From Gammaproteobacteria bacterium (GTDB lineage: Bacteria; Pseudomonadota; Gammaproteobacteria; Ga0077536): 64,000 nucleotides of DNA. Each line of letters begins with the position of its first letter. The first letter of the stretch is position 1. This document shows positions 852 through 47,278 of the stretch, piece by piece. The stretch is from the NCBI GenBank assembly GCA_965217605.1, contig CBDCJB010000014.1:12407-76406 (forward strand). The letters are read 5' to 3'. Below the pieces are notes generated by a model. That model was not told the DNA's origin and ran no database searches. It saw only the letters and a program-made list of their open reading frames with translations. Made by a program: the position numbers and the translations under genes.

Positions 852-996
852 GACGGCTATATTGGGTCGTTAGCCGCCTCCTCGCGTCAGCGCAGCACTG
901 TTCTAGATTACGTCGGCAATGCTCTCGTAAGCGGTCGTCGAGGGCGGTTCAGTCGAGCGAGTATGACGAGCAGCGGCTCGCGGCAAGGGCGGACAT
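852..996 (+). repeat. Composite intergenic repeat, copy A1
   Basis: gacggctatattgggtcgttagccgcc...gcagcactgttctagattacgtcggcaatgctctcgtaagcggtcgtcga...cggctcgcggcaagggcggacat; aligns by eye with the other copies. Confidence 0.85.
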
Positions 997-3948: not shown

Positions 3949-4105
3949 GAAACGCCCGTCACCAAAGTTCAATTTCGATCTACAGGGCCGAGCGCCTATT
4001 TGGAAGGCGACAGTAGGATCGATGTCAGGTTCTGCCATTTTTTCACACGATCGGAAAAGGCAAGACCTGAACACCCGAGTTGCGTATGCGCCGAACGAGA
4101 GTTAT

Positions 4106-4192
4106 GAGTGCTGTGGGTCGGTAGCCGCCCTATCGCGGCAGTGCAACACGGCTCAGAATGGCGTCTGTAATCCCCTTGGAAGCGGTCGTCCG
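4106..4192 (+). repeat. Composite intergenic repeat, copy A2
   Basis: gggtcggtagccgccctatcgcggcagtgcaacac...gcgtctgtaatccccttggaagcggtcgtc. Confidence 0.8.
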
Positions 4193-4200
4193 TTTGGTTT

Positions 4201-4342
4201 AAATGCTGTTCCGACGATGAGCGGTGGCCGCTGTTGAGCGCTGCTTATCCCAAGCGTTATATGCTTAAAAGAAACCGAGAACGAAGCAATTGACATTACC
4301 CGACGATATAGACGACGAAAAGCTGGCTGAGATTGCGCTCGC
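4201..4342 (+). repeat. 142-bp direct repeat of 16132-16273 (leader plus truncated 5' end of the DUF6429-like gene)
   Basis: Manual alignment shows 3 mismatches in 142 bp. The copy breaks off after codons LTLPDDIDDEKLAEIALA. Confidence 0.9.
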
Positions 4343-4429: not shown

Positions 4430-6295
4430 ATGAGAAATCTGCACCTGTTACCGCTGTTTGGAATCCTCTTCGCGTCGCTCGCCACGTACGCTGATCCCAG
4501 AGCCGAAGAGTCGAAAGGACTGGACGGTGCCGCGCTGTACGCCGAACACTGTATCGAATGCCACGGGCGCGCCACAATTTCCCCATCGTTGCCCGCAATG
4601 TCGAACATGACCGCCGAGGAAATTCACAAGGAACTGTGGTTCGGCGTCATGGCGCAGTTCGTCAATGGCTTGGACGACGCGAAGCGATGGACCATAGCCA
4701 AGTGGATCGCGGAGCACAAACCCGAAAAGGGCACACGCGGTCCCGGCGTGGCCATGTGCAAAGACAAGACGCCGCTGGTACCCGATGCGGCGCATGACTG
4801 GCCTGGACTGTCGAACGACAACCGGTACAACCGGCATGTGACCAATGCGCAGTTCACCGCTGCGGGGTTAGCGAACCTCAAGGTCAAGTGGGCCGTGGCC
4901 TTCCCGCAGGTCCACGCGTTCAAGGGTGGCGGGCACCCGGTCGCCGTCGTGGGCGACCGCATCTTCGTGGGGAATCTCAATCAATGGGTCTATTCGCTCG
5001 ATGCGGACACCGGCTGTGCCCACTGGGCATTTCGCGCGGAATGGCGGATCCGATCGAACGTCGCGGTGTCCGACGGTATCGCCGTGTTCGGCGATACGGC
5101 GGCCAACGTCTACGCCGTAGATGCGGAAACGGGCCAATTGCTGTGGCGTGACCGGGCCGATTGGACGCCGACCTCACGCATTACGGGCAATGTGACGACA
5201 CATAACGGTATGGTTTACGTGCCCGTGTCCTCCTTCCAAGAAGTGCTCAATATTGGCAAGAATAAGGAATACCCGTGCTGTACGTTTCGCGGCAGCATCG
5301 TTGCCTATGACCTGCGTACCGGCGAGCGCAAGTGGAAGTCCTATACCATCGACAAGGAGTTCGGGTATCTGGGCACGACGAAAGCCGGCACGAACCGTTA
5401 TGGTCCCTCGGGGGTCGTGGTGTTCTCGGCGGTCACGGTCGACGACAAGCGCGGCCTGCTCTACGTACCAACCGGTAACCAGATGACCGAGCCGGTCGTG
5501 CCCGAATCCGACTCCGTGATCGCGTTCGACATGAAAACGGGCGCCAAGCGCTGGGTGACTTCACTGGCGCCTGAGCAAATGGGCGGTGAGGACGTCTACC
5601 ATCTAGGCTGCGAAAAGTGGGTCGATCCCGAACAGAAAACCTGTTCACCGGTCAACCCGGAAGGACACGGTGACCGGGATATCGTGTCGCCCGCGGTCCT
5701 GGTGGAACGCTCGGACGGCAAGGAGATCATCGTGACCGGATCCAAGGACGGCATGCTTTACGGCCTGGATCCGGATGACAACGGCAAAGTCCTGTGGCAG
5801 ATCCGCGTCGGTAAAGGCGGAGAGCTCGGCGGCATCCAATGGGGATTCTCGAGCGACGGCAAAAACGCCTATGTACCCGTCATCGATATGGATTTGGACT
5901 GGAAGGCGAACGGATCCTTCACGGCGGTCGATCTGCTGACCGGTAAATCCGTATGGCGTATACAGGATATGAAGCCTGATTGTGAAGGTAAGACGACAGC
6001 GTCGTGCAGCAATGCGTTCAGCTTGCCCAGTACCGTGGCGGGCGGGCTCGTTTTCACCGGGACCGGTGACGGCGTGCTGCGCGCTTACGATACCGCGACC
6101 GGCAAGCCGGTGTGGACGTTCGATACGGTGCGCGAATATGAAACGGTGAACGGTCGCAAAGGCTTCGGTGGCGGGCTCGGCTCGTTCGGAGGGCCGGTCA
6201 TCGTGAAAAACCGGTTATACGTTTCATCCGGCATGGATCAGTTCAATATCGGGCTGCCCGGCAACGTAGTGATCGCGTTCGAGATCCCCGAATAA
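4430..6295 (+). CDS. Quinohemoprotein (cytochrome c + PQQ beta-propeller) dehydrogenase, polyvinyl-alcohol dehydrogenase-like
   Basis: Signal peptide, CIECH heme-c motif, repeated Trp-docking motifs (vyavDa.TG..lW), CCTFRGS motif typical of the PVA-DH family. Confidence 0.8.
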   Translation: MRNLHLLPLFGILFASLATYADPRAEESKGLDGAALYAEHCIECHGRATISPSLPAMSNMTAEEIHKELWFGVMAQFVNGLDDAKRWTIAKWIAEHKPEKGTRGPGVAMCKDKTPLVPDAAHDWPGLSNDNRYNRHVTNAQFTAAGLANLKVKWAVAFPQVHAFKGGGHPVAVVGDRIFVGNLNQWVYSLDADTGCAHWAFRAEWRIRSNVAVSDGIAVFGDTAANVYAVDAETGQLLWRDRADWTPTSRITGNVTTHNGMVYVPVSSFQEVLNIGKNKEYPCCTFRGSIVAYDLRTGERKWKSYTIDKEFGYLGTTKAGTNRYGPSGVVVFSAVTVDDKRGLLYVPTGNQMTEPVVPESDSVIAFDMKTGAKRWVTSLAPEQMGGEDVYHLGCEKWVDPEQKTCSPVNPEGHGDRDIVSPAVLVERSDGKEIIVTGSKDGMLYGLDPDDNGKVLWQIRVGKGGELGGIQWGFSSDGKNAYVPVIDMDLDWKANGSFTAVDLLTGKSVWRIQDMKPDCEGKTTASCSNAFSLPSTVAGGLVFTGTGDGVLRAYDTATGKPVWTFDTVREYETVNGRKGFGGGLGSFGGPVIVKNRLYVSSGMDQFNIGLPGNVVIAFEIPE

Positions 6296-6345
6296 GGGTA
6301 CCGTGACGGCGATTAGATCGGAGGACGTCATACAAAGCAGGACAC

Positions 6346-6475
6346 ACTAGCTATATAGGGTCATCAACGGCCTCATCGCGGCAGTGCAGTACTGATTTAG
6401 ATTACATCCGCAATACTTTCAGAAGGTCGTCCAACAGCGTTCAGTCGAGTGTTAACCGAGCACTTCGGCTTCAGA
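6346..6475 (+). repeat. Composite intergenic repeat, copy A3 (continues at 6639-6648 and 9833-9840 after insertions)
   Basis: actagctatatagggtcatcaacggcctcatcgcggcagtgcagtactgatttagattacatccgcaat...cacttcggcttc. Removing MITE 2 and the IS3 restores ggccaaaagcggacgtc. Confidence 0.8.
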
Positions 6476-6638
6476 CCGAGGCTGTGTGAAAACTATTTGC
6501 GGATTTGAAAAGTGGGAAGGCCATGATCCTATGTGATCGATTTCGGCAGCTTGATCCCTAAAACATCTGAATAGAGCAACACAAGTGGGGAAAATTTTCA
6601 TCGCATGACGCTTTTTCGGAGTTTTCACACAGCCTCGG
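6476..6638. mobile_element. MITE 2 (163 bp, IS1182-like ends)
   Basis: Perfect 19-bp terminal inverted repeats ccgaggctgtgtgaaaact (6476-6494) / agttttcacacagcctcgg (6620-6638). Confidence 0.75.
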
Positions 6639-7025
6639 CCAAAAGCGGTGGAGTTGACCCGCTTTCGTGGATACCTGACCCTTTTAGAAGGAGGATGCCA
6701 CGATGCCCAAAACACGAACTGCCTATCCACCGGCCTTCCGGCAACCGATGATCGAACGGGTACGGGCGGGCCGCAGCCCGGAAGACCTGGCACGCGAGTT
6801 TGAGCCGACCGCACAGACCGTACGCAACTGGGTCGCGCAGGCCGACCGTGATGAAGGTCGCCGCAACGACGGTCTGACCACTGCCGAACGCGAAGAACTG
6901 CGGCGTCTGCGTCGGGAGAATCGGCGGCTACGTGAGGAACGGGAGATCCTTTCAAAAGGGAATTATAACTATCTCTTGACTTTTCTGCTTGAATCCACTA
7001 TCCTTACAGTTAGTTAAGGAGATCG

Positions 7026-8681: not shown

Positions 8682-8942
8682 GGCCTTCTCCTATTAGAGT
8701 AGGAGATCCTTGACCTAACTTCTTCGGGGCGATACGATCTGCCCCGCTTGTGGAAAGCAAGTGTCAAGAACCTCCTGTCAGAAGATTCTTAGAAAGGTCA
8801 GCGGCAATGCTGGCCTTTCCGCGTTTAGGGCCTGGATTCTAACAGAGCCGAATAACTGAACATCAAGAGATAGTTATAATTCCCTTTCAAAAGCCACGGT
8901 CTGGTTCGCTCGGGAGACCGATTCGAGGAAATCTTCGCGTTC

Positions 8943-9791
8943 ATGAGAGTGAATCAGGCCACCTACCGGATCGCGCCGATGTGCCGGCTACTCGGTGTCT
9001 CCCCGAGTGGCTACTACGCGTGTCGGACACGTGAACCCTCAGCGCGGTCGAAGCGCGACGCGCAACTCAAGGCACGTATCCAGGCCATCCACAGCTGGAG
9101 TCGAGGCACCTATGGGGCACCGCGTATTCACGCCGAGCTCGCGGATGAGGGGACGCACGCGGGTCGCAAGCGCGTCGCCAGGCTGCTGCGTGAATGGGGT
9201 TTGGCCGGGGTGAGTCGACGCACAAGGACGCGCACGACACGCCGCGATCACGATGCCCGCCCGGCGCCGGATCTGGTCGAGCGTCACTTCGTGGCTTCGC
9301 GGCCGGACGCACTGTGGGTTGCTGACGTGACCGACGTGCCGACGTGGGCGGGGTTCGTGTATCTGGCGGTTGTCGTCGATGCATTCAGTCGGCGCGTCGT
9401 AGGCTGGTCGATGGCGACGCATCTGCGCACTGAACTCGTGCTCGAGGCGCTCAACATGGCGCTATGGCAGCGTCGACCGAAGAATGTGATCCATCACAGT
9501 GACCAGGGCTGCCAGTACACTTCGTTCGCCTTCGGCAAGCGCTGCCGGTTAATGGGTGTACAACCGTCGATGGGATCGGTCGGCGATTGCTACGATAACG
9601 CGATGGCCGAGAGCTTCTTCGCGACGCTCGAATGCGAACTCATCGACCGCCACAGTTTCAAGACGCAGGCCGACGCGAAGATGGCGATCTTCGAGTTCAT
9701 CGAAGGCTGGTACAACCCACACCGTCGTCACTCATCCCTCGGTCAGCAATCACCGCTAAACTATGAAAATAATTATCAACAGGCTGCTTGA
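8943..9791 (+). CDS. IS3-family transposase OrfB (rve integrase core)
   Basis: W.AD.T, D.FSR, HHSDQG.QY, NA.AESFF..LE.E motifs. Confidence 0.95.
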   Translation: MRVNQATYRIAPMCRLLGVSPSGYYACRTREPSARSKRDAQLKARIQAIHSWSRGTYGAPRIHAELADEGTHAGRKRVARLLREWGLAGVSRRTRTRTTRRDHDARPAPDLVERHFVASRPDALWVADVTDVPTWAGFVYLAVVVDAFSRRVVGWSMATHLRTELVLEALNMALWQRRPKNVIHHSDQGCQYTSFAFGKRCRLMGVQPSMGSVGDCYDNAMAESFFATLECELIDRHSFKTQADAKMAIFEFIEGWYNPHRRHSSLGQQSPLNYENNYQQAA

Positions 9792-9933
9792 AACCCAAGC
9801 GCCATACCGTCCACGGAAACGGGGCAACTCCACGGACGTCCAATCCCTGACACTTGGCTGACCCCTTGATTGGTCCCGCTATACTCCCTCTCGCTGTCTA
9901 GCCCCCAATTTCTTTACGCCGGAAAGTCAAATT

Positions 9934-11103: not shown

Positions 11104-11302
11104 TTCACGTCCGTCGGGGTACTACGGTTACCGGGGTGGATGCTGTCTAAGGCATCCGGATTCTTCGGCTCCCTAACTTTACGCCGCAAGGCTTTTGGAC
11201 GCGCCGTGTAACAAATCGATGAACAAGTTCGTTTGACCCTGCATTCTGCTCGCTAACCCAAACGACTCGAAGCCTGAAACGCCGGTTACCTCTATAGTTG
11301 GT

Positions 11303-11450
11303 GACTAGCTATATGGGGTCGGTAGCGGCCTGATCGCGGCAGTCCAGTACTGTTCCAAATTACGTCTGCAATACACCTCGTAAGCGGTCAATCGGCTTGC
11401 TTAGCAATCATCGCTGGGGCTGACTTCGACTCTCGGCCATGAGCGGACCT
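11303..11450 (+). repeat. Composite intergenic repeat, copy A4 (full three-unit form)
   Basis: gactagctatatggggtcggtagcggcc / acgtctgcaatacacctcgtaagcggtc / gacttcgactctcggccatgagcggacc. Confidence 0.85.
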
Positions 11451-11526
11451 CGAAGCCAGGTTGAGAAGCGATAAGCCACCAACTGCTACACTTCTATTGA
11501 GGCCGGACAATAAAAAGGGGCTCGAT

Positions 11527-14145
11527 ATGACGTTCGATGAGGTACTTGCCCAGACGCTCACACTTCTCGAACAGGAAGGCCGCGTATCCTACAGCGCGCT
11601 TAAACGGCGCTTCGATTTGGATGACGAGTACGTCAAAGACCTCAAGGAAGAAATCATCGATGCGAAACAGGTGGCGGTCGATGAAGATGGCAAAATTCTG
11701 GTCTGGTCTGCAGTAGACACCGCCGCACGCCTACGAGAATCTCTCGGATCTCAATCTCCCATCAGCTACACACCATCGCATCTCGCTGAGCGCATCGTCG
11801 CTGAGCAAGCAGCCATGGAAGCAAGGGGTGCCGTCGAGGGTGAGCGTAAGACCATCACGGCATTGTTCGCCGATCTGAAAGGTTCGACAGCGCTCATTGA
11901 TGGACTTGATCCGGAAGAAGCCCGCGACATCATCGACCCGGCATTGCAGATCATGATGGATGCGGTACACCGCTACGAGGGATATGTCGCGCAAGCTCTC
12001 GGGGATGGGATCTTCGCTTTATTTGGCGCTCCTATTGCGCACGAAGATCATCCGCAACGAGCATTGCATGCGGCCTTGCAATTACAAGACGAGATGCGCG
12101 GTTATAGTGACAAATTACGAAGGCGTGATGGTCCACCGTTGCAGGTTCGCGTCGGTATCAATACCGGCGAAGTTGTGGTGCGTTCGATTCGCAAAGATGA
12201 CCTGCATACCGACTACGTGCCCGTCGGACGTTCGACCAACATTGCCGCCCGCATGGAGCAGTTAGCCACGCCTGGCTCGACTTTGGTCACTGAGCACACG
12301 CACAAACTCACGGACGGTTACTTCGATTTCAAGGCGCTGGGGCAAACGCAGGTCAAAGGTGTGGACGCGGCCCTCAATATCTATGAACTCGCCGGTGCAG
12401 GACCGTTACGGACTAAACTCGAAGTTTCGGCCCGTCGCGGTCTGTCCCAGTTTGTCGGGCGCGAACGTGAGAGCGAGCAACTCCAACAAGCCTTAGCGCA
12501 GACCCGAGCCGGCCACGGTCGAATTGTCGGCGTGATGGGCGAGCCCGGGTTGGGTAAATCACGGCTGTTCCACGAGTTCAAATTGACTTTACCCATTGAT
12601 TGTTTGGTCTTGGAGACCTTCGCGGTCTCACACGGTAAATCTTCTCCCTACCTGCCGGTCATCGACCTGCTCAAGAGTTACTTTGACATTGCGGTCGAAG
12701 ACGACAATCAGAGGCGGCACGAAAAAATCTCGACTAAGCTCCTGGCCCTCGAGCGTAGCCTCGAAGACACCCTGCCCTATCTCTTCGCGCTGATGGGTAT
12801 CGATGATCCCGCATCCTCTTTGCAACAAATGGACCCACAGGTCCGTCGGCAACGGACTTTTAGCGCACTGAATAAACTGTTTCTGCGGGAGAGCTCGAAG
12901 CAACCCTTAATCGTAATCTTTGAAGACCTGCATTGGATCGACAACGAGACCCAGGGCGTTCTCGATGCACTCAGTGAAGCCGAAGCGAATGCTTCCATTC
13001 TGTTGCTCGTAAATTATCGGCCGGAATACAGCGATAACTGGGGTCAGAAGGCGCATTACTCACAAGTGCATCTCACCGCATTGGCGAGCGAGGAGGCGGC
13101 GGAGCTCCTGACGTTTCTGCTCGGTGACGACGCGAGCCTCACCGCATTGAAGCAGGTGATTCTGCAGAGGGCAGAAGGTACGCCGTTTTTCATGGAGGAA
13201 GTCGTCCGGACGCTGGTCGAGGAAGACGTACTGCTTGGCGAGCACGGGAACTACCGGCTAGAGAAAGCCCCGAGCGAGCTGCATATCTCGCCGACCGTAC
13301 AGGGCGTGCTGGCGGCCCGCATCGACCGGCTGCAGCCTGGGGAAAAAGCGTTATTACAACGGCTCTCGGTTATCGGCCGTGAGTTCCCGTTGGGACTGGC
13401 ACGCAAAGTCGCAACGGAATCCGATGACGAGTTTCACCACTTGCTGTCGTCACTGCAAGCCAAAGAATTTCTCTATGAACAAACGGCGTTGCCCGACGCC
13501 GAGTACATCTTCAAACACGCGCTGACTCAGGAAGTCGCCTATGGTACGGTGCTCCGGGAGCAGCGCAAGACGATGCACGAACGGGCCGCGAACGCGATCG
13601 AGGCGCTCTACAGTGCCAAACTCGAAGACCATTACAGTGAATTAGCGCATCACTACACTCGGGGTGGTAACGTCGAGAAAGCGCTCGAGTACCTCCACCT
13701 CGCCGGGCAGCAGGCAGTGGAACGGTCGGCTAACGAAGAAGCCATTGCGTACCTGCGACAGGGCTTGACGCTGCTCGAGGATTTAGACGACGCAACCGAA
13801 CGAGTGCAGCAGGAACTCAAGCTCCAGATGGCATTGGGCGCGCCACTGATGGCCACCAAAGGATGGGCAGCGCCGGAACTCGGTCAGGCCTACAACCGCG
13901 CTTACGAGCTGTGCATGCAACTGGGGGAGACCCCGGAGCTTTTCGAAGTGATCGCGGGTTTGTTCGTTTATCACGTCGGCTCACCGTCGCCGTTGGGGAC
14001 GGCCCGCGACCTGGCCGAGCAGGCGGACGTACCCACCCTCTTTCTGATCGCCAACGGAGCAATGGCGAATGTCCTGTTTGTATGCCGTCAGCGCCTATGG
14101 GACAGATATAGCGCTGGTTTAAGGGAGAGTTTTTGTTCATCCTAA
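11527..14145 (+). pseudogene. Class III adenylate/guanylate cyclase + AAA ATPase + TPR protein, truncated at ~14078 by an IS
   Basis: ITALFADLKGST and GDGIFALFGAP cyclase motifs; Walker A GEPGLGKS; Walker B IFEDLHW. The last ~21 codons derive from the IS end. Confidence 0.85.
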
Positions 14146-15390
14146 CCTGAGGAGTTGAGATGAAACAGAGACCGACAGGACGAACGTCGTCGTCAGAAAA
14201 AATCATTCGTGACATCAAGCGCAACACGCGCAAGCAAACCAGTGCGGAGGAGAACATACGCATCGTACTGGACGGCGTGCGTGGCGAAGCCAGCATTGCG
14301 GAGCTGTGCCGACGAGAAGGTATTGCTCAAAGCCTAACTTACAAAGGGTCCAAGGACTTCATGGAAGCCGGCAAGCAGCGCCTGGCCGGGGACATTGTTC
14401 GCCAGGCCAACACCAGTGACGTCACGGCGCTTCGGCGTGACGCCCGAGATCTCAAGGACGTGGTCGCCGAGCAAACGCTGGAACTGCGGCTGCTCAAAAA
14501 AAACAGGCTCGGGGATGGGGACGACCTGCAATGAGGTATTCAGCCGCCGAGAAGCTTGAGATCATTCGGTTGGTGGAGCGATCGCACCTGCCGGCCAAGC
14601 AAACCCTGGCTATGTTGGGCGTTCCACGCACCACCTTCTAGCGTTGGTACGCACACTATCGTCATGACGGAGAAGTGGCGCTGCAGGACCAGGCGCCCCT
14701 GCCGGGGCGGGTGTGGAACCGGATCCCCGATACCGTGCGAGACCGCCTGATCACGTTGGCGCTGAACAGGCCGGAACTGAGTCCGCGCGAGTTGGCGGTT
14801 ACCTTCACCGATACCGAGGGCTATTTTGTCTCGGAAAGCTCGGTTTACCGGCTTCTCAAAGCCCACGCTCTGATCACCCGTGCGGCCTTCATCGTCATGA
14901 AGGCCGCCAGCGAGTTCACAGACAAGACCACGGCCATCAATCAGCAGTGGCAGACGGATTTTACCGACCTGAAGATCATGGGCTGGGGCTGGATGGTTCT
15001 AGCCACGATACGGGATGACTTTTCACGCTATGTCGTGGCCTGGGAGCTGTGTACGACCATGACCAGCCGGGATGTGGCCGAGACCCTGGAACTGGCCTTG
15101 CAGGCCTCGGGTTGCGACCAGGCCGACGTCGTGCAAAAGCCGAGATTACTCTCCGACAATGGCTCAAGTTACCTCTCGAGCGACCTTGCTGATTGGCTCA
15201 GCGACAATGGGATGAGCCACGTTCGCGGTGCACCGTACCATCCGCACACACAAGGCAAGATCGAACGCTGGCACCAGACGCTGAAGAACCGGATACTACT
15301 GGAGAATGACTTCTTGCCCGGCGATCTGAAACAGCACCCCGTTTCCGTGGACGGTATCGAGCGGTTCGTCGATCACTACAATCATCGCCA
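14079..15390 (+). mobile_element. Second IS3-family element, degenerate (orfA 14160-14534; orfB from 14531 with in-frame TAG at 14639)
   Basis: Left end tgtatgccgtcagcgcctatggga; orfA IRIVL.G.RGE.SIAELCRREG; orfB WQTDFT...DDFSRY...SDNGS...GKIERWH. Confidence 0.8.
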
Positions 15391-16080
15391 TCTTCGCGTC
15401 GGCCTGCGTCTTGAAACTGTGGCGGTCGATGAGTTCGCATTCGAGCGTCGCGAAGAAGCTCTCGGCCATCGCGTTATCGTAGCAATCGCCGACCGATCCC
15501 ATCGACGGTTGTACACCCATTAACCGGCAGCGCTTGCCGAAGGCGACGAAGTGTACTGGCAGCCCTGGTCACTGTGATGGATCACATTCTTCGGTCGACG
15601 CTGCCATAGCGCCATGTTGAGCGCCTCGAGCACGAGCTCAGTGCGCAGATGCGTCGCCATCGACCCGCCTACGACGCGCCGACTGAATGCATCGACGACA
15701 ACCGCCAGATACACGAACCCCGCCCACGTCGGCACGTCGGTCACGTCAGCAACCCACAGTGCGTCCGGCCGCGAAGCCACGAAGTGACGCTCGACCAGAT
15801 CCGGCGCCGGGCGGGCATCGTGATCGCGGCGTGTCGTGCGCGTCCTTGTGCGTCGACTCACCCCGGCCAAACCCCATTCACGCAGCAGCTTGGCGACGCG
15901 CTTGCGACCCACGTGCGTCCCCTCACGAGAAAGGATCAAACGAAAGACTATCGCGAAACGTCGTTTGCACTATCAACGACACGCTGCGTAACATGAAAAT
16001 GATGAGACCGTCGTTGCGGCGACCTTCATCACGGTCGGCCTGCGCGACCCCGTTGCGTACGGTCTGTGCGGTCGGCTCAA
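15337..16080 (-). mobile_element. Fragmented third copy of the 1249-bp IS3 element
   Basis: Blocks identical to the copy at 35362-36610 (IR piece at ~15337, orfB piece ~15385-15925, orfA piece ~16005-16080), interleaved with other sequence. Confidence 0.75.
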
Positions 16081-16220
16081 AATACGCCCTTAGCAAGACC
16101 AAACATCTGTCCCATTTGTTTGAAGACGGACAAATGCTGTTCCGACGACGAGCGGTGGCCGCTGTTGAGCGCTGCTTATCCCAAGCGTTATATGCGTAAA
16201 AGAAACCGAGAACCAAGCAA

Positions 16221-16475: not shown

Positions 16476-16657
16476 AATAATGGCGGCACATAGGTAGCCA
16501 CTCAACTGGGACCTTTAGCTGCACCCTTCCTTTTCTGCTGCTCCGGTATAAGTTTGGCGTGAGTTAATCTGTCGTCGATGACTGCTGTGTGGTTTGGCCC
16601 TAGTTTTTCGGACTACCTAATTCGGCACGATAATGTGCTGAGGCTATTAGGAGAAGC

Positions 16658-17218
16658 TTGGCAGCGATGGACATCCAGAAACCCAGATGGACGGACGTAA
16701 AGGAGCAAATCTCCAAGCTTGAGCACGTGGATCTCGTTCGACTCGTTGGAAGTCTCTACCAACTTGGAAAGGTTAATCGTGACTTTCTCCACGCGCGTTT
16801 CGCAAGCACCCAAGATCGGCTTCGAGTCTACCGAGAAGTCATTGATCAATGCATGTATCCCGACGCCAATAGAGACTGGTCCTTCCGAATTGTCGAGGCG
16901 AAGCGCGCCATCGGCCAATACAAGAAAGCGGTGCCTGACGATCGGAGAGGCGCGGCGGACTTGATGACCTACTTCGTGGAGTGCGGCACGCGATTCTGTG
17001 TGGATCACCAATATCTCGATGACGAACCGTTATGCAGGACATTATTGAGGATGTTTGATCGCGCCATCCGGGCGGCTCTCGAGTTGCCCGAAGCCGATCG
17101 TGGTGAATTTCGGCTTCGGCTCCGAGAGATCGTCGATTCTTCGACAGACATGATCTGGGGTTACTGGGAAGAGTTGTCGGACCAATACGACAACGCCTTT
17201 CCGCCCGGCGGCGAATAG
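16658..17218 (+). CDS. Conserved hypothetical helical protein (possibly DUF6155-like)
   Basis: aggag RBS; W.DVK..I......L..L...LY.....NRDFLHARF pattern. Family name tentative. Confidence 0.55.
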   Translation: MAAMDIQKPRWTDVKEQISKLEHVDLVRLVGSLYQLGKVNRDFLHARFASTQDRLRVYREVIDQCMYPDANRDWSFRIVEAKRAIGQYKKAVPDDRRGAADLMTYFVECGTRFCVDHQYLDDEPLCRTLLRMFDRAIRAALELPEADRGEFRLRLREIVDSSTDMIWGYWEELSDQYDNAFPPGGE

Positions 17219-17285
17219 TTGATCCGATCGTTACGCGTCGAGTTGGTAGGCGCGGCCTGACGGCGGCCGCTCCGATAGATATGAC

Positions 17286-17591
17286 CTAAATATCAGTTTG
17301 CTCCGTGATCTCGAACTGGACGGGCTGACCGGTCTTACGCTGGACCACAATCGTGCGCGCGAGTACACGACCGCCTTGAGCGATATCGCTGACGCGTAAC
17401 CGAACAGGATCGTAGCCACGGAGTTTGCTGTCGATCGCCAGGTTGAACAGTGCAAGTTCGCGGGCTCGCCTCTGCTCCTGCAAACGGAATCGGATCGCCC
17501 AGATTTCTTTGAGCTTGAGCGGTGCTTTCTGTCCGGTGATCTTCCCCTTATTCCAAGGTGTTCTTTGAGGCTTGAAGGTTAGAAGTTGCAT
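17286..17591 (-). pseudogene. Tyrosine recombinase (PWNKG-type phage-integrase family), N-terminal fragment
   Basis: PWNKGKITGQKAPLKLKEIWAIR...LALFNLAIDSKLRGYD.V.LRV.D...QRKTG.PVQFEITEQT. Contains the first catalytic Arg and Lys; the HxxR/H/Y half is absent. ggag RBS. Confidence 0.85.
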
Positions 17592-17861
17592 TCAATTTCT
17601 CCAAATCAGTGATTGGAGAAACATTTTGATCTCCGAGCGCTCCTTGAGGGTGTCGACTACGCTATCGGCTTCACATTGCAGCCAGATTCAGTTCCATTTC
17701 GTCTCTGACCAGCCACAAACGGACGGTCGCGCTTCTACAAAGGCTTTGTATTCGCTTGGCTCTTACGGAAACGAGAATTGATGTTGTAAGGGCGCCCCAC
17801 GCACTGGCCCTGGCATAAGCGATATCCTTGACCCGTTGTTTTAACGATGGGGGATGAAGAG

Positions 17862-18236
17862 ATGACCGAAGTAGGAATTGGAGCCATTGGTGCTTTGACC
17901 GGCATCGCCGATGTCGCCGCGACGTATCTTGGAGTATGGCTTTCTCTAACTTTTGCTTATCTCACAGTTTCATATTTCGTCGGCAAAGCATTGTCACGGT
18001 ACCAGTGCATGATGATATCGTTCCTTTATCTGCTTTCTGCATCAATGTTTGGCGTAACTACGTTAGTACATGTCAAAGCGTGGGTGCTGCTCCGTGCCCG
18101 TGAGCAATCTGTCTACGACGAAATATCGCTTGTTACTTTTCCTTGGTGGATCGAAGCTGTAGCGATCTTTCTCGTGACAGGCACCCTGATTAGTTTGTAC
18201 TTCATGTATAACGTCCGCCATACGGAGAAGGCGTGA
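17862..18236 (+). CDS. Small multi-TM membrane protein (paralog of 21480-21851)
   Basis: Hydrophobic segments; shares YLTV.YF.GK.LSR.QC..IS.LY and SLYFMYNVR with its paralog. Confidence 0.7.
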   Translation: MTEVGIGAIGALTGIADVAATYLGVWLSLTFAYLTVSYFVGKALSRYQCMMISFLYLLSASMFGVTTLVHVKAWVLLRAREQSVYDEISLVTFPWWIEAVAIFLVTGTLISLYFMYNVRHTEKA

Positions 18237-18310
18237 CGGCAGACACCACATACGCAGAGCGCGAGGTGTGCCGGCGGCTAGAATGGCTAACAGCGATGAC
18301 TGCTCAGTCC

Positions 18311-18381
18311 GACGTCCGCCTTTGATCTCGGAAGTCCAGGCGCAGCATACCGACGTCTGCAATCAGGGCCACATTAGACAT
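18311..18381. repeat. Cluster of repeat-family units
   Basis: gacgtccgcctttgatctcggaagtcc and gacgtctgcaatcagggccacattagacat share the GTCYGC arm of the repeat units. Confidence 0.5.
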
Positions 18382-18779
18382 GCCTCGTTCGTCAGGATAG
18401 GTCGGAACTCAAAAGCCGATCCGCAAGAAGAAGTCCAAATTTCTACAAATCAGGCAAACGGCATCGTCTCCGCGAACGGGAGGCACGACATACCACGCTT
18501 TCGTTCCCGTTGGCTGTCTCCAGAGACTAGCCCTCTATTCAACTGGGCGAAATAAAGTTGTACTAACTCAATTCATGTGCTGATACCAACCGTCCTTACT
18601 TCGCTTTCTCTGCTTCCCTAAAATACTCGACGATATCCGGAGAAAGATTCTCACTACCCCTCTGCCTTGCATGTTCCTCCATCTTAGCGTGTACGGCGGA
18701 AGTGACCGGATCACGACGGTCAGTCAGGCTCGAGAATCGAACCTGACGGCGTTTGTGGCGCGCGTGTTCCGCAGGCCAC

Positions 18780-21323: not shown

Positions 21324-21464
21324 TATATATGAGTCGTGAGCCGTCTGATCGCGGAAGGGTAGCACTGTTCCGAATTACGTCCGGAATACCGCTCGAAAGC
21401 GGTCCTCGTTCGCCTTCAATGTCGGTGCGGAAGCCTGACTTCGACTTTCAGCCAATCGCAAACA
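21324..21464 (+). repeat. Composite intergenic repeat, copy A5
   Basis: tatatgagtcgtgagccgtctgatcgcgg...agcactgttccgaattacgtccggaataccgctcgaaagcggtc...tgacttcgactttcagccaa. Confidence 0.8.
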
Positions 21465-21479
21465 GGTCGCGCTCGCTCA

Positions 21480-21851
21480 TCAACTCTTGTCCGCATTGCG
21501 AACGTTGTACATAAAATAAAGGCTGACCAGCGTCGCGGCCACAAGGACAAACGCCGTACCCTCTATATAACCTGGGACGTTATTAAAGATCCAAACTTCG
21601 TCAAAAATCGTCTTCTCGCGCGCTTGGATCACGAACCAGCTGTCCACATATCCGACTGTTACCGACACAAAAATTGCGGCAAGGACCCCGTATAGGGTCG
21701 AAATCGTCAAACATTGAAATCGCGATAAGGATTTGCCCAGGAAATATGCGACTGTTAGATACCCGAACGTCACAGAAACCCACATGCCCGCGTAGGTAGC
21801 AGTTACCTCGCCAATATTCGTCAACGCAGCAATAGTGTCAGCTTCGGTCAT
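21480..21851 (-). CDS. Small multi-TM membrane protein (paralog of 17862-18236)
   Basis: See paralog; bracketed by repeats A5 and A6. Confidence 0.7.
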   Translation of the reverse strand: MTEADTIAALTNIGEVTATYAGMWVSVTFGYLTVAYFLGKSLSRFQCLTISTLYGVLAAIFVSVTVGYVDSWFVIQAREKTIFDEVWIFNNVPGYIEGTAFVLVAATLVSLYFMYNVRNADKS

Positions 21852-21902
21852 TTCGCTATCCTCCCATCTTCAAACTACCGGCGACTAGCATAGCTGGCCT
21901 GC

Positions 21903-22040
21903 CTGCTATTGGGTCGTCGGCCGCCATATTGCGGCGCAGTACAGCTGAAGGTTACGTCTGCAATCCACACAAAACCATTCACTCGGCTTGCGTAACAATC
22001 ATCGCCGGGGGTGACTTCGACTCACGGCCAGAAGCTGACG
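21903..22040 (+). repeat. Composite intergenic repeat, copy A6
   Basis: ctattgggtcgtcggccgccatattgcggcgcagtac...ttacgtctgcaat...tcggcttgcgtaacaatcatcgccgggggtgacttcgactcacggccagaagctgac; the linker matches A4. Confidence 0.85.
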
Positions 22041-22103
22041 CACATCGATGCACGAGCTCAGGATATGCTTATCCAACGAAATCGGCCGCGTTTGGAGGCA
22101 AAT

Positions 22104-22612: not shown

Positions 22613-22642
22613 GACACTCGCCTTTCGGCCGATAACTGACAT
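22613..22642 (+). repeat. Single repeat-family unit
   Basis: gacactcgcctttcggccgataactgacat resembles the third unit of A4/A6. Confidence 0.5.
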
Positions 22643-25090: not shown

Positions 25091-25191
25091 TACATGCCCT
25101 CGATTAGAGAGACCCCATCTTGGCACACGAGACTTTTACTTCCCAGGGATGCTTACGGCGTATTCGGGCTTAGTAAAATACTCGCGATGCG

Positions 25192-25330
25192 CACTTCAGG
25201 TCGTGAGCCGCCATATCGCGGCGGCGCGGCACTGCAAGAGGTTGCGTCTGGAGTTCCCTCGAAAGCGGTCATCTAGTTGCTTTAATGATCGCATCGAGGA
25301 AGCACTTCGGCTTACCGCCGGAAGCGGACG
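25192..25330 (+). repeat. Composite intergenic repeat, copy A7
   Basis: ggtcgtgagccgccatatcgcggcggcgcggcactg...gcgtctggagttccctcgaaagcggtcat...cacttcggcttaccgccggaagcggacg. Confidence 0.85.
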
Positions 25331-25367
25331 CTAAACAACGGCTTCAACCGATCTTTACGGCAACGGA

Positions 25368-33784: not shown

Positions 33785-33804
33785 GGCATACAAGTTCTGA
33801 CAGC

Positions 33805-33943
33805 TGTCCGCTTCGGCTCGTGCGCTGCCGAATTTCGCCATTGCAACACTGCTAAGGGTTAGGTCTGCAAAACGCGCGTAAACGGTCGTCGAGTTGCTTT
33901 AAGCGCTGTGCGGGAGTCTGACTTCGGCTTGCGGCCAGATGCT
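33805..33943 (+). repeat. Composite intergenic repeat, copy A8
   Basis: gtccgcttcggctcg...gcaacactg...ttaggtctgcaaaacgcgcgtaaacggtcgtcga...tgacttcggcttgcggccagatgct. Confidence 0.75.
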
Positions 33944-33951
33944 TAGGGGAA

Positions 33952-34575
33952 TTAAAGGATCTGAGGAACAAATCTGTCCCGACGACTTCGCTGGGACCAG
34001 GAGAGCACTACTCCGAGCCCTCCAGCGAGAAGTGGAAATGGCGCTGGGATGGGGACTGTCACAACACCAACAGTCAGGATGTCCCCTCCATCGCTAAACT
34101 CGCCTAAATCTAATATGAAACCGCCATCGCCCTGAATTACTCCACGCAGCCAGCCGTAAATCAAAGGGTCAATAGACAAGCCGGATACCTTGACGTAGAA
34201 AATGTCGCCCGGCGTCATTTGGACGTTGCCACCGGAAAAGGGGAAATACGAGCCCGGGTTTATGATTGTCTCACCAAATATGGCTTGATCTACTGTGGAA
34301 TTTGCGTGCAAAGCAAAGAGATTAATGAAAGTGTTGTTGTTTACGAGAAATGAGGCCGCAACTCCCTCAATAGGTTCAAACGCGACGCCCAGGACTGTGC
34401 TTAATTGGATGGGTGTCAGGTAGAAATCCGTCCAGTAATGGCAATCCGTTAAGAATTCGCAGGCGATGGCGAAATGGGTCAGATCGTTCGCGTTACGAGG
34501 TATATATATCGTCGACGAGGCCGGCCGCCATGCCGACACCGCGAGCAAACACACTAATAAGGTCAGACGCCTCAT
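33952..34575 (-). CDS. Secreted protein with PEP-CTERM/VPLPA-CTERM-type tail
   Basis: Signal peptide; VPIPAPFPLLAGGLGVVLSWSQRSRR. Confidence 0.7.
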   Translation of the reverse strand: MRRLTLLVCLLAVSAWRPASSTIYIPRNANDLTHFAIACEFLTDCHYWTDFYLTPIQLSTVLGVAFEPIEGVAASFLVNNNTFINLFALHANSTVDQAIFGETIINPGSYFPFSGGNVQMTPGDIFYVKVSGLSIDPLIYGWLRGVIQGDGGFILDLGEFSDGGDILTVGVVTVPIPAPFPLLAGGLGVVLSWSQRSRRDRFVPQIL

Positions 34576-34749
34576 TTCCCGTCCTCCCGCGCCACTCTCA
34601 CGTCGGTTCCACAGGGCCGCTTCGATAATACCGTTTCAATAGCTGCGATTACTAGAGATTCTAGGCAGTGTAAATGTAACGAATCGTGCCAACCAGTCTG
34701 AGCGCGCATGAGAAACATTCGGCGTTAACCCGAATTTTTCAGACCTCAA

Positions 34750-34833
34750 ATGTCCGCAAAGGGTTGAGCCGCCTGATCTCGGCAGCGCAGCACTGTTATA
34801 AGTTACGTCTGCGATCCTCTCGTAAGTAGCCAT
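34750..34833 (+). repeat. Composite intergenic repeat, copy A9
   Basis: atgtccgcaaagggttgagccgcctgatctcggcagcgcagcactgttataagttacgtctgcgatcctctcgtaag. Confidence 0.8.
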
Positions 34834-35007
34834 CCCGGATCGAAACTAAGTTATCCTCGACGCGTAAGCACCCGTGGCGCATAAGCTGAAAGAGATCGGC
34901 GATCATTTCGGTCTGCATAATTCGTTGATCCACCGAAACATCAGAATCTCCCATGACAGCAAGGCATAAGGCAAGGCCTGGTACGGTACCAGTTTGGTTG
35001 GGGGTAT

Positions 35008-35352: not shown

Positions 35353-35402
35353 AACACTACTTGGAGTTGCCCCGTTTCCGTGGACGGTATGGCGCTTGGG
35401 TT

Positions 35403-36251
35403 TCAAGCAGCCTGTTGATAATTATTTTCATAGTTTAGCGGTGATTGCTGACCGAGGGATGAGTGACGACGGTGTGGGTTGTACCCGCCTTCGATGAACG
35501 CGAAGATCGCCATCTTCGCGTCGGCCTGCGTCTTGAAACTGTGGCGGTCGATGAGTTCGCATTCGAGCGTCGCGAAGAAGCTCTCGGCCATCGCGTTATC
35601 GTAGCAATCGCCGACCGATCCCATCGACGGTTGTACACCCATTAACCGGCAGCGCTTGCCGAAGGCGAACGAAGTGTACTGGCAGCCCTGGTCACTGTGA
35701 TGGATCACATTCTTCGGTCGACGCTGCCATAGCGCCATGTTGAGCGCCTCGAGCACGAGCTCAGTGCGCAGATGCGTCGCCATCGACCCGCCTACGACGC
35801 GCCGACTGAATGCATCGACGACAACCGCCAGATACACGAACCCCGCCCACGTCGGCACGTCGGTCACGTCAGCAACCCACAGTGCGTCCGGCCGCGAAGC
35901 CACGAAGTGACGCTCGACCAGATCCGGCGCCGGGCGGGCATCGTGATCGCGGCGTGTCGTGCGCGTCCTTGTGCGTCGACTCACCCCGGCCAAACCCCAT
36001 TCACGCAGCAGCTTGGCGACGCGCTTGCGACCCACGTGCGTCCCCTCATCCGCACGCTCGGCGTGAATACGCGCTGCCCCATAGGTGCCTCGACTCCAGC
36101 TGTGGATGGCCTGGATACGTGCCTTGAGTTGCGCGTCGCGCTTCGACCGCGCTGAGGGTTCACGTGTCCGACACGCGTCGTAGCCACTCGGGGAGACACC
36201 GAGTAGCCGGCACATCGGCGCGATCCGGTAGGTGGCCTGATTCACGCTCAT
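35403..36251 (-). CDS. IS3-family transposase OrfB
   Basis: Near-identical to 8943-9791, with several substitutions including W>G. Confidence 0.9.
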   Translation of the reverse strand: MSVNQATYRIAPMCRLLGVSPSGYDACRTREPSARSKRDAQLKARIQAIHSWSRGTYGAARIHAERADEGTHVGRKRVAKLLREWGLAGVSRRTRTRTTRRDHDARPAPDLVERHFVASRPDALWVADVTDVPTWAGFVYLAVVVDAFSRRVVGGSMATHLRTELVLEALNMALWQRRPKNVIHHSDQGCQYTSFAFGKRCRLMGVQPSMGSVGDCYDNAMAESFFATLECELIDRHSFKTQADAKMAIFAFIEGGYNPHRRHSSLGQQSPLNYENNYQQAA

Positions 36252-36556
36252 GAACGCGAAGATTTCCTCGAATCGGTCTCCCGAGCGAACCAGGCCGTGG
36301 CTTTTGAAAGGATCTCCCGTTCCTCACGTAGCCGCCGATTCTCCCGACGCAGACGCCGCAGTTCTTCGCGTTCGGCAGTGGTCAGACCGTCGTTGCGGCG
36401 ACCTTCATCACGGTCGGCCTGCGCGACCCCGTTGCGTACGGTCTGTGCGGTCGGCTCAAACTCGCGTGCCAGGTCTTCCGGGCTGCGGCCCGCCCGTACC
36501 CGTTCGATCATCGGTTGCCGGAAGGCCGGTGGATAGGCAGTTCGTGTTGTGGGCAT
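36248..36556 (-). CDS. IS3-family OrfA
   Basis: HTH + coiled-coil LTTAEREELRRLRRENRRLREEREIL; ATGA overlap with orfB. Confidence 0.9.
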   Translation of the reverse strand: MPTTRTAYPPAFRQPMIERVRAGRSPEDLAREFEPTAQTVRNGVAQADRDEGRRNDGLTTAEREELRRLRRENRRLREEREILSKATAWFARETDSRKSSRS

Positions 36557-36932
36557 CGTGGAATCCTCCTTCTAAAAGGGTCAGGTATCCACGAAAGCGG
36601 GTCAACTCCAACTCGCTCAAACCCTTTCTAATGTTAACGGTAGGACGCCAGCAAAGAAACACAACTTACAAAACACCAACCCAAAGGTAATCGCCAGTTA
36701 ATTGGTTCCTTGGCGCTCATCCCCTTCATTTTGTAAACGGATTCACAAAGTATAGCGGCCGCCGCCGATACAGTTATGGCGGAGGTCAGAGTGAACCTGG
36801 CCGACATGACGCGATTGATGAAAATCCGGCAACGCGACATCCATATACAAAAGCGGCCTTCGTACTAGGTAAGCTTGGCGTTTCAGCTCATGGTTTCGGC
36901 GTCGAGCCGAAAGGTTGAGTGCGCCGAGCTAA

Positions 36933-40702: not shown

Positions 40703-40733
40703 CCCGGATTCCGCTGCGCTCCATCCAGGCTAC
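40703..40733. repeat. GTAG-type REP element
   Basis: cccggattccgctgcgctccatccaggctac; same family as 47208-47278. Confidence 0.8.
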
Positions 40734-47207: not shown

Positions 47208-47278
47208 CCCGGATTCCGCTACGCTCCATCCAGGCTACGTAAGCCCTGTAGCCCGGATGGAGCGTAGCGGAATCCGGG
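47208..47278. repeat. Inverted REP pair (BIME-like)
   Basis: cccggattccgctacgctccatccaggctac (47208-47238) and gtagcccggatggagcgtagcggaatccggg (47248-47278). Confidence 0.85.

Follow-up and report, generated by a model that had tools for sequence, protein, structure and literature searches.

Within a 64,000-nt stretch of gammaproteobacterial DNA (hereafter the window), a 101-aa fragment of a tyrosine recombinase lies in the midst of an array of repeats of about 150 nt. This raises the question of what the fragment has to do with the array. An earlier note, made from the sequence alone, had taken it for the decayed cognate recombinase of the repeats, set beside an attI-like primary site as in integrons. 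Our analysis suggests that the fragment is probably the inactivated resident copy of a small tyrosine recombinase that serviced the window's array, and that one array junction (17230-17726) still appears to carry the recombinase gene.

An internally deleted recombinase gene

The fragment is encoded at 17286-17591 on the minus strand, with a GGAG 8 nt 5' of its ATG, and the neighbouring gene (17847-18236, plus strand) is divergent; in both respects the earlier note was correct. The predicted product begins MQLLTFKPQRTPWNKGK and reads MQLLTFKPQRTPWNKGKITGQK through to a terminal FEITEQTDI and stop codon. It contains the block PWNKGK..GQK.PLK..EIWAIR..L followed by ALFNLAIDSKLRGCDL and KT..PVQFEITEQT, the motifs of a family of small recombinases that we refer to as the PWNKG family. 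In tblastn it matched residues 5-102 of full-length homologues with 66-69% identity, the match stopping at 17295 within EITEQT. Comparison with homologues from 80 genomes and 438 plasmid records gave 66-72% identity over residues 5-100, and DNA-level similarity to plasmids (69 records) was limited to 17295-17559. By itself the fragment had zero Pfam or NCBIfam matches. Of the R-K-HxxR-H/W-Y residues of the catalytic domain (PF00589) it has the box-I Arg (LRG) and the beta-hairpin Lys, and it lacks HxxR, the His/Trp position and the Tyr nucleophile. With most catalytic residues gone, the fragment is best regarded as a pseudogene of a PF00589 member rather than a member itself, and it is predicted to be catalytically dead.

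The earlier note had described the ORF as truncated after EQT. Homology does stop at that point, but the EITEQT-DI end, followed directly by the stop codon, fits an in-frame internal deletion better. Family members carry an EITEQT(R) motif near residue ~95 and end in a C-terminal E[IM][SA]EQT[ED][IV] before the stop; the two EI(T/S)EQT stretches within one gene are identical at 11-15 of 18 nt. In an alignment with nine homologues, the terminal 'DI' of the fragment falls under the family C-terminus, and one homologue terminates in EISEQTDI. The window DNA at the end of the fragment reads GAGATCACGGAGCAAACT/GATATTTAG, and tblastn found no C-terminal recombinase remnant elsewhere in the 64-kb window. 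The simplest history would be a deletion between these two short direct repeats that removed codons ~101-200, and with them HxxR, His and Tyr. The deleted gene retains its native start, leader hairpin and native stop. Two substitutions beside the catalytic Arg, C60Y and L62P, affect positions that are 99-100% conserved across 71 homologues; on the simplest history, they would have arisen after the deletion.

A frame that is open from native start to native stop, and that keeps its leader hairpin, Shine-Dalgarno sequence and 3' hairpin, could encode a product that has kept some function, perhaps as a regulator that binds the sites or as a dominant-negative partner. We regard this as very improbable, given the two substitutions at nearly invariant residues, the lack of any similarly shortened homologue among 80 loci, and the lack of a partner, as no intact family member was found in the 4.84-Mb assembly (89.6% complete). 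An inactivated gene is the reading that we follow below.

The leader hairpin (17596-17621, minus strand) pairs the Shine-Dalgarno GGAG with an upstream CTCC (TTTCTCCA...TGGAGAAA). This arrangement is common to the homologues (leaders L021-L100), with stem sequences that vary by locus, such as ACTCC/GGAGT, GTCCTCC/GGAGGAC and the TTTCTCCA/TGGAGAAA of the window, and all four bases of the GGAG are paired in the minimum free energy fold of 48 of 72 homologue leaders. This suggests that recombinase synthesis may be under translational control. A second, GC-rich hairpin (GCGGCC-7 nt-GGCCGC; 17252-17270, minus strand) lies 16 nt past the stop codon.

A family of small recombinases

Full-length homologues of the fragment have 207-211 aa. 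They match PF00589 with 70-73 bits over residues ~42-194, only ~40 residues preceding the match, and the family thus appears to consist of catalytic-domain-only tyrosine recombinases of ~209 aa. No specific NCBIfam model was reached by full-length homologues. Against the integron integrase models a full-length homologue scored 24.6 bits (TIGR02249, cut-off 265) and 21.4 bits (NF011946, cut-off 435), over the C-terminal ~70 residues only, which bears out the earlier view that the fragment is not of the IntI type.

The family is very common: species-representative genomes contain at least 591 loci, and tblastn detected 438 plasmid records, mostly annotated 'tyrosine-type recombinase/integrase' and 60-75% identical. 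Among relatives of the window's genome its distribution is patchy (3 of 41 genomes), and it is absent from the sister genomes G001 and G002, though both have array repeats. A limited literature search, which does not prove that none exists, returned no account of the family or its arrays.

Recombinase genes lie between inverted 30-nt sites

We built an ungapped 30-nt weight matrix solely from the flanks of 80 intact homologue loci (consensus GACGGTCGCTAACCGGCCAAAAGCGGACAT). When the best site was taken for each flank, 36 were upstream on the strand opposite to the gene, 36 were downstream on the gene strand, and 3 were placed otherwise, so that intact family members sit between two 30-bp sites in inverted orientation. 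The site consists of outer arms GGTCGC / GCGGAC around a conserved core; DNA past the stop codon in the 80 loci typically reads as a hairpin and then ...CGGCCA-N4-CGGAC. Among 29 complete pairs the commonest core combination, in 15, was CGACCC upstream with CGGCCA downstream. By eye the consensus is unlike dif.

The earlier note had proposed aligning upstream regions in search of a conserved site and scanning homologue neighbourhoods for the repeat. In the aligned upstream regions of 9 homologues the Shine-Dalgarno hairpin alone was visible, and the site emerged only with 80 loci. The neighbourhoods are rich in the 30-nt site but not in the genus-specific 150-nt repeat: over 300 nt away from the gene there are 88 further sites scoring at least 15, where 1.7 would be expected. 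Many of these distant sites form opposite-strand pairs 32-250 nt apart and amount to gene-less junctions between modules.

A scan of the window gave four matches of at least 15 bits, against 0.17 expected from Markov shuffles (a short site HMM run in nhmmer was too weak for use, with E of 0.1-1). Two of the four are repeat ends: 4104-4133 (minus strand, 18.9 bits), at the left end of the repeat starting at 4083, and 11421-11450 (plus strand, 15.2 bits), at the right end of that starting at 11282. The third is a solitary family-type site between two genes (22613-22642, plus strand, 17.3 bits). The fourth, and the second-best match in the window, lies at 17697-17726 (plus strand, 18.1 bits), upstream of the fragment and inverted relative to its gene, as the family rule for upstream sites demands. 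It differs from the family pattern in its core, CAGCCA rather than CGGCCA, and in its distance from the ATG, which is 105 nt where 45-80 nt is usual.

This site contains the 24-mer gtctctgaccagccacaaacggac (17701-17724; 110-133 nt upstream of the ATG), which the earlier note had singled out as a repeat-like unit. The 24-mer is unique in the window even with three mismatches, and the profile of the whole ~150-nt repeat gave no nhmmer match at E<=100 in the 700 nt around the fragment (17200-17900). The unit is thus real as a site but is not a copy of the repeat, and we dropped the explanation of it as a chance match: only the terminal 30 nt of the repeat are common to both. Likewise, the proposed attI-like primary site at 17600-17850 did not hold up, as the one canonical family site there, 17697-17726, is of the same class as the array sites.

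Downstream of the gene, most homologues have a hairpin and then a site directly 3' of the stop codon. At the fragment the hairpin is present, and the matrix gives nothing of 2 bits or more on the minus strand there; 17230-17259 may be a vestige of the module's downstream site, at a score that is not significant. Of the two sites of a PWNKG module, the fragment thus has a strong upstream one in canonical orientation; downstream there are a hairpin and a weak vestige.

The array repeat resembles a recombinase module that lacks its gene

In the window we counted ten copies of the ~150-nt repeat, all on the plus strand. Copies detected by nhmmer lie at 830-1024 (E=2e-37), 4083-4259 (E=4e-32), 6344-6508 (E=7e-33), 11282-11480 (E=2e-35), 21328-21487 (E=4e-31), 21878-22054 (E=3e-27), 25162-25355 (E=9e-40), 33793-33975 (E=6e-34) and 34740-34923 (E=3e-26), the last of the contig. 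The tenth is a 3' remnant (16132-16190) left by an IS3-family insertion. At 98% identity, 16132-16273 matches 4201-4342, which comprises the 3' part of the repeat at 4083-4259 plus the start of a cassette. The 3' part of the copy at 6344 has apparently been displaced by mobile-element insertions, with a weak site-HMM match at 6635-6649, and a further degenerate unit lies at about 16584-16640. Over the contig (C14:3387-47303) there are 14 copies, 14 of 14 co-oriented, and smaller clusters lie elsewhere in the genome. Within a set of 41 genomes, only members of one genus have the repeat; G001 carries 7 copies, and the 76 or more of G002 form about a dozen arrays with long co-oriented runs.

We slid the family matrix, made from homologue flanks, along a profile of 41 distinct array copies. 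There was one maximum per strand, each at a repeat end: at the left end on the reverse strand (ATGAGGCGGCTGACGACCCAAAGCGGACAT) and at the right end on the forward strand (GCACTTCGGCTCTCGGCCAAAAGCGGACGT). Both exceeded all 500 column-shuffled controls. An exact GGGTCG was present in the left part of 27 of the 41 copies and in the right part of none. The ungapped family matrix gives low scores to many array copies; in the window, besides the two strong repeat-end sites given above, matches were found at 853-882 (minus strand, 12.1), within the copy at 830-1024, and at 22012-22041 (plus strand, 10.9), within that at 21878-22054. In the G002 loci (about 93 kb), 14 of 15 matches of at least 12 fell at expected array-repeat ends.

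Since the repeat ends match the family flank sites in the same arrangement, the repeat has the architecture of a recombinase module minus the gene. Apparently, an inverted site with a CGACCC core stands at its left end and a direct site with a CGGCCA core at its right end, with about 85 nt of lineage-specific interior between them, as in the copy at 830-1024. The interior showed no homology to recombinase modules, and the repeat matched nothing in Rfam. RNAalifold on 17 copies gave no consensus structure on either strand, and in none of 9 copies were the attC boxes R'' (RYYYAAC) and R' (GTTRRRY) both present on one strand in the right order, so that the combination of boxes and a single-strand-folding palindrome that defines attC is absent from the repeat.

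A gene-less unit bounded by inverted terminal sites (ATGTCCGCTTTGGGTCG... and ...CGGCCAAAAGCGGACGT) could itself be the mobile entity: a miniature module derivative that spreads in trans and inserts preferentially near existing copies, the 'cassettes' being intervening DNA and the fragment the last autonomous copy. The conserved, lineage-specific interior, the confinement to one genus at 7 to at least 76 copies per genome, and the gene-less opposite-strand site pairs beside homologues in other taxa would all suit such an element. We nevertheless think it unlikely. Copies within arrays are strictly co-oriented, both on the contig and in the long same-strand runs of G002; a tyrosine recombinase would invert, not excise, a segment between inverted sites; no target duplications were seen; and, as described below, one cassette has a repeat at its border in one genome and a recombinase module there in another. 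Repeats that are array junctions serviced by the recombinase remain our preferred reading.

Several other elements of the window touch the array. Nested, truncated IS3-family copies interrupt array repeats (14160-16081; 8883-9832 / 35362-36311; 6649-6958 / 36301-36610); inverted copies 25 kb apart are 99% identical, and one insertion deleted the 5' part of the repeat at 16132. An ORF of 894 aa (11461-14145, plus strand), which by eye has the look of an adenylate-cyclase/AAA-ATPase/TPR-type protein, begins inside or just after a repeat; a paralogous 426-aa C-terminal fragment is encoded at C11:3458-4738, near another repeat, at the start of contig C11. A REP-like element, unrelated to the array, has 31-nt arms (CCCGGATTCCGCTACGCTCCATCCAGGCTAC) that make up an almost perfect palindrome at 47208-47278 and recur a third time at 40703-40733.

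The recombinase module occupies a junction of the array

The gene divergent from the fragment lies in a single-gene cassette (17711-18322, plus strand) made up of the right half of the site, a 5' region of its own and the gene for a 129-aa membrane protein (17847-18236). The cassette is 88% identical to G002:C2:1112911-1113522, a single-gene cassette that in G002 stands between two ordinary array repeats. Similarity between the two genomes starts at about 17711, in ...GCCA(C/G)AAACGG..., which belongs to the core and outer arm of the site; left of this breakpoint come the recombinase leader in the window and the repeat body in G002. At 18322, after GTCCGCCTT, the two sequences cease to be similar: G002 goes on with its next repeat, the window with a degenerate junction. 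This degenerate junction (18311-18400, plus strand) consists of GTCCGCCTT, which corresponds to the outer arm of an inverted site, followed by GTCTGCAAT, left over from the interior of a repeat.

The same cassette is thus bounded by a repeat in G002 and by the module site in the window, so that the recombinase module occupies the position of an array junction. The module site at 17697-17726 appears to be the cassette boundary, on the evidence of one cross-genome breakpoint, window versus G002. The module lies mid-array and not at the array head, against the integron-like placement of the recombinase that had been supposed. The notion of a decayed cognate recombinase fares better: the flanking sites of its family are of the repeat-end kind and its position matches a junction, set against which are the arrays of G001 and G002 that have no family member.

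The 129-aa protein encoded at 17847-18236 has a paralogue of 123 aa encoded at 21480-21851 (minus strand), a membrane protein likewise without a Pfam family and likewise in a cassette. The latter is a clean one-gene cassette between two repeats, and its gene is in the opposite orientation to that at 17847-18236.

Other recombinases near the arrays

The plasmid-common, patchy distribution of the family bears on a different explanation, namely that the fragment is an unrelated relic of a plasmid or island in a recombination-prone, IS-rich region and that the repeats are made or moved by another enzyme. The sister genomes G001 and G002 have arrays without a PWNKG recombinase, and several G002 arrays have tyrosine recombinases of other types at or inside them. 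Candidates for the moving enzyme would then be the host Xer proteins, or the P4-type, FimB-like or IS91-linked recombinases beside the G002 arrays. However, each type found in G002 is accounted for by its own context. We rejected the IS91-linked tyrosine recombinases, as they are paired with IS91-family Y2 transposases; the P4-type integrases, as they are typical of island ends; and the FimB-like proteins, which are invertases. No family-type site of at least 12 lies beside the P4-type or FimB-like genes. The array end sites, on the other hand, match the flank sites of the small family in sequence, core type, order and orientation, and the fragment's own site bounds a cassette. We consider an unrelated relic improbable and retain the inactivated resident recombinase as our explanation; as array-rich G002 lacks the recombinase, another enzyme may yet be at work, or the 150-nt unit may have spread in the manner of a MITE.

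In G002, a gene for a ~293-319-aa Xer/IntI-like tyrosine recombinase precedes each of the IS91-family Y2 transposase genes at or inside several arrays (L007, L008, L009, L010); array DNA may be a target of these IS91-linked genes, or may tolerate them. At two other loci (L012, L013) arrays begin about 2 kb from P4-type integrase genes of the island-end kind, one of them frameshifted, so that genomic islands may harbour at least some of the arrays.

A model for cassette exchange

From the arrangement of sites we propose the following mechanism. The recombinase would bind the inverted arms of a site, exchange strands inside the conserved core, and pair sites of equal core. In adjacent junctions, sites with like cores lie as direct repeats, and recombination between them would excise a circle of one cassette plus one junction. 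Any like site could take up such a circle again, and arrays would grow in this way; re-insertion of circles of cassette plus junction at like sites would explain why arrays are co-oriented. Each segment has unlike cores on its two sides, which would not recombine with one another and would allow cassette exchange by double crossover, as with heterospecific lox sites. Binding, cleavage position and directionality of the recombinase on these sites are all predicted.

None of the three genomes of the genus has an intact recombinase, which makes their arrays orphans comparable to the CALINs of integrons. They persist, and may have grown, without a resident recombinase gene, G002 having at least 76 repeats and no family member. 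On this model, the arrays of the genus would now be frozen unless a recombinase comes in trans, for example from a plasmid, and the patchy occurrence of the family (3 of 41 relatives), together with its frequent carriage on plasmids, makes supply in trans conceivable.

More broadly, and with somewhat less than even confidence, we suggest that these elements could represent a third, undescribed recombinase-driven gene-cassette system beside integrons and dif modules, in which the ~209-aa recombinase exchanges modules between 30-bp sites with CGACCC or CGGCCA cores. In one genus, a ~150-bp gene-less derivative of the recombinase module would have multiplied to about 100 copies, making up many co-oriented fields of cassettes, as long as ~136 kb in G002, that persist without a resident recombinase. 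If this is true, a very common small 'integrase' (at least 591 loci and hundreds of plasmids) marks a cassette-shuffling system distinct both from integrons and from the Xer-dependent dif modules. The window would contribute a direct sequence link between the sites that flank the recombinase and a long chromosomal cassette array, a case in which recombinase module and gene-less repeat hold the same position beside the same cassette in two genomes, and an example of large orphan arrays analogous to CALINs. For annotation, short 'truncated integrases' are best read together with their 30-bp sites. Material for experiments is at hand in the 30-bp consensus, the two core types and the many intact homologues.

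Comparison with known systems

The closest analogues are integrons and the dif (pdif) modules of Acinetobacter, and the recombinase subfamily and site architecture seen here are different from both. Like integrons, the present system combines a tyrosine recombinase with co-oriented arrays of small miscellaneous cassettes (glyoxalase/VOC, DUF genes, oxidoreductases, small membrane proteins); a cassette abuts the site beside the recombinase gene; and there are orphan arrays without a recombinase, as in CALINs, which are attC clusters without an integrase. Unlike integron integrases, the recombinase has ~209 aa, lacks the N-terminal core-binding domain and scores far below the IntI models (24.6 vs 265). 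Its sites are 30-bp and of the duplex type, with two core types and in inverted pairs, rather than attC hairpins, and they have no R''/R' pair. The gene lies inside the array between two sites rather than at the head beside a distinct attI, and cassettes are often multi-gene and in either orientation.

The dif modules, which rely on host XerC/XerD, share sites of ~28-30 bp that alternate in orientation, so that every segment lies between inverted sites, and are likewise shuffled between replicons by a route of movement that is inferred. They differ from the present modules, which have a dedicated, element-encoded mini-recombinase, two core types and, in the genus, a conserved gene-less unit of ~150 nt.

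Cre/lox and FLP/FRT with heterospecific spacers resemble our sites in having short inverted arms around a conserved core and, in the engineered form, two core variants flanking each segment. Engineered heterospecific sites block recombination between the flanking sites and permit recombinase-mediated cassette exchange. The analogy is one of logic only, as the protein here lacks the N-terminal domain of Cre and FLP. The FimB/FimE invertases are similar in being tyrosine recombinases of ~200 aa with little beyond the catalytic domain. They belong to another subfamily, NF007370, which gives 157.8 bits for the FimB-like proteins of G002 and is absent among the matches of the small family, and they invert one promoter segment between short inverted repeats, with no association with arrays.

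Family members at two plasmid loci

Two plasmid loci show further arrangements of the small recombinase genes. On a Roseomonas gilardii plasmid (L020; NZ_CP015585, 244076-256339), two tandem copies of a RelE/ParE pair plus small recombinase, 89% identical, sit among small genes typical of cassettes (catB, GST, VOC, NUDIX), another array-like setting of the family. On plasmid pRSB223 (L004; JX469828), inverted repeats of 112 nt (4582-4693 / 5683-5794; 91% complementary) bracket the recombinase gene and a 103-nt tandem duplication lies upstream of it; several TTGGCCGCCGTAAACCGGCCA-type sites lie within the bracketing repeats and the duplication.
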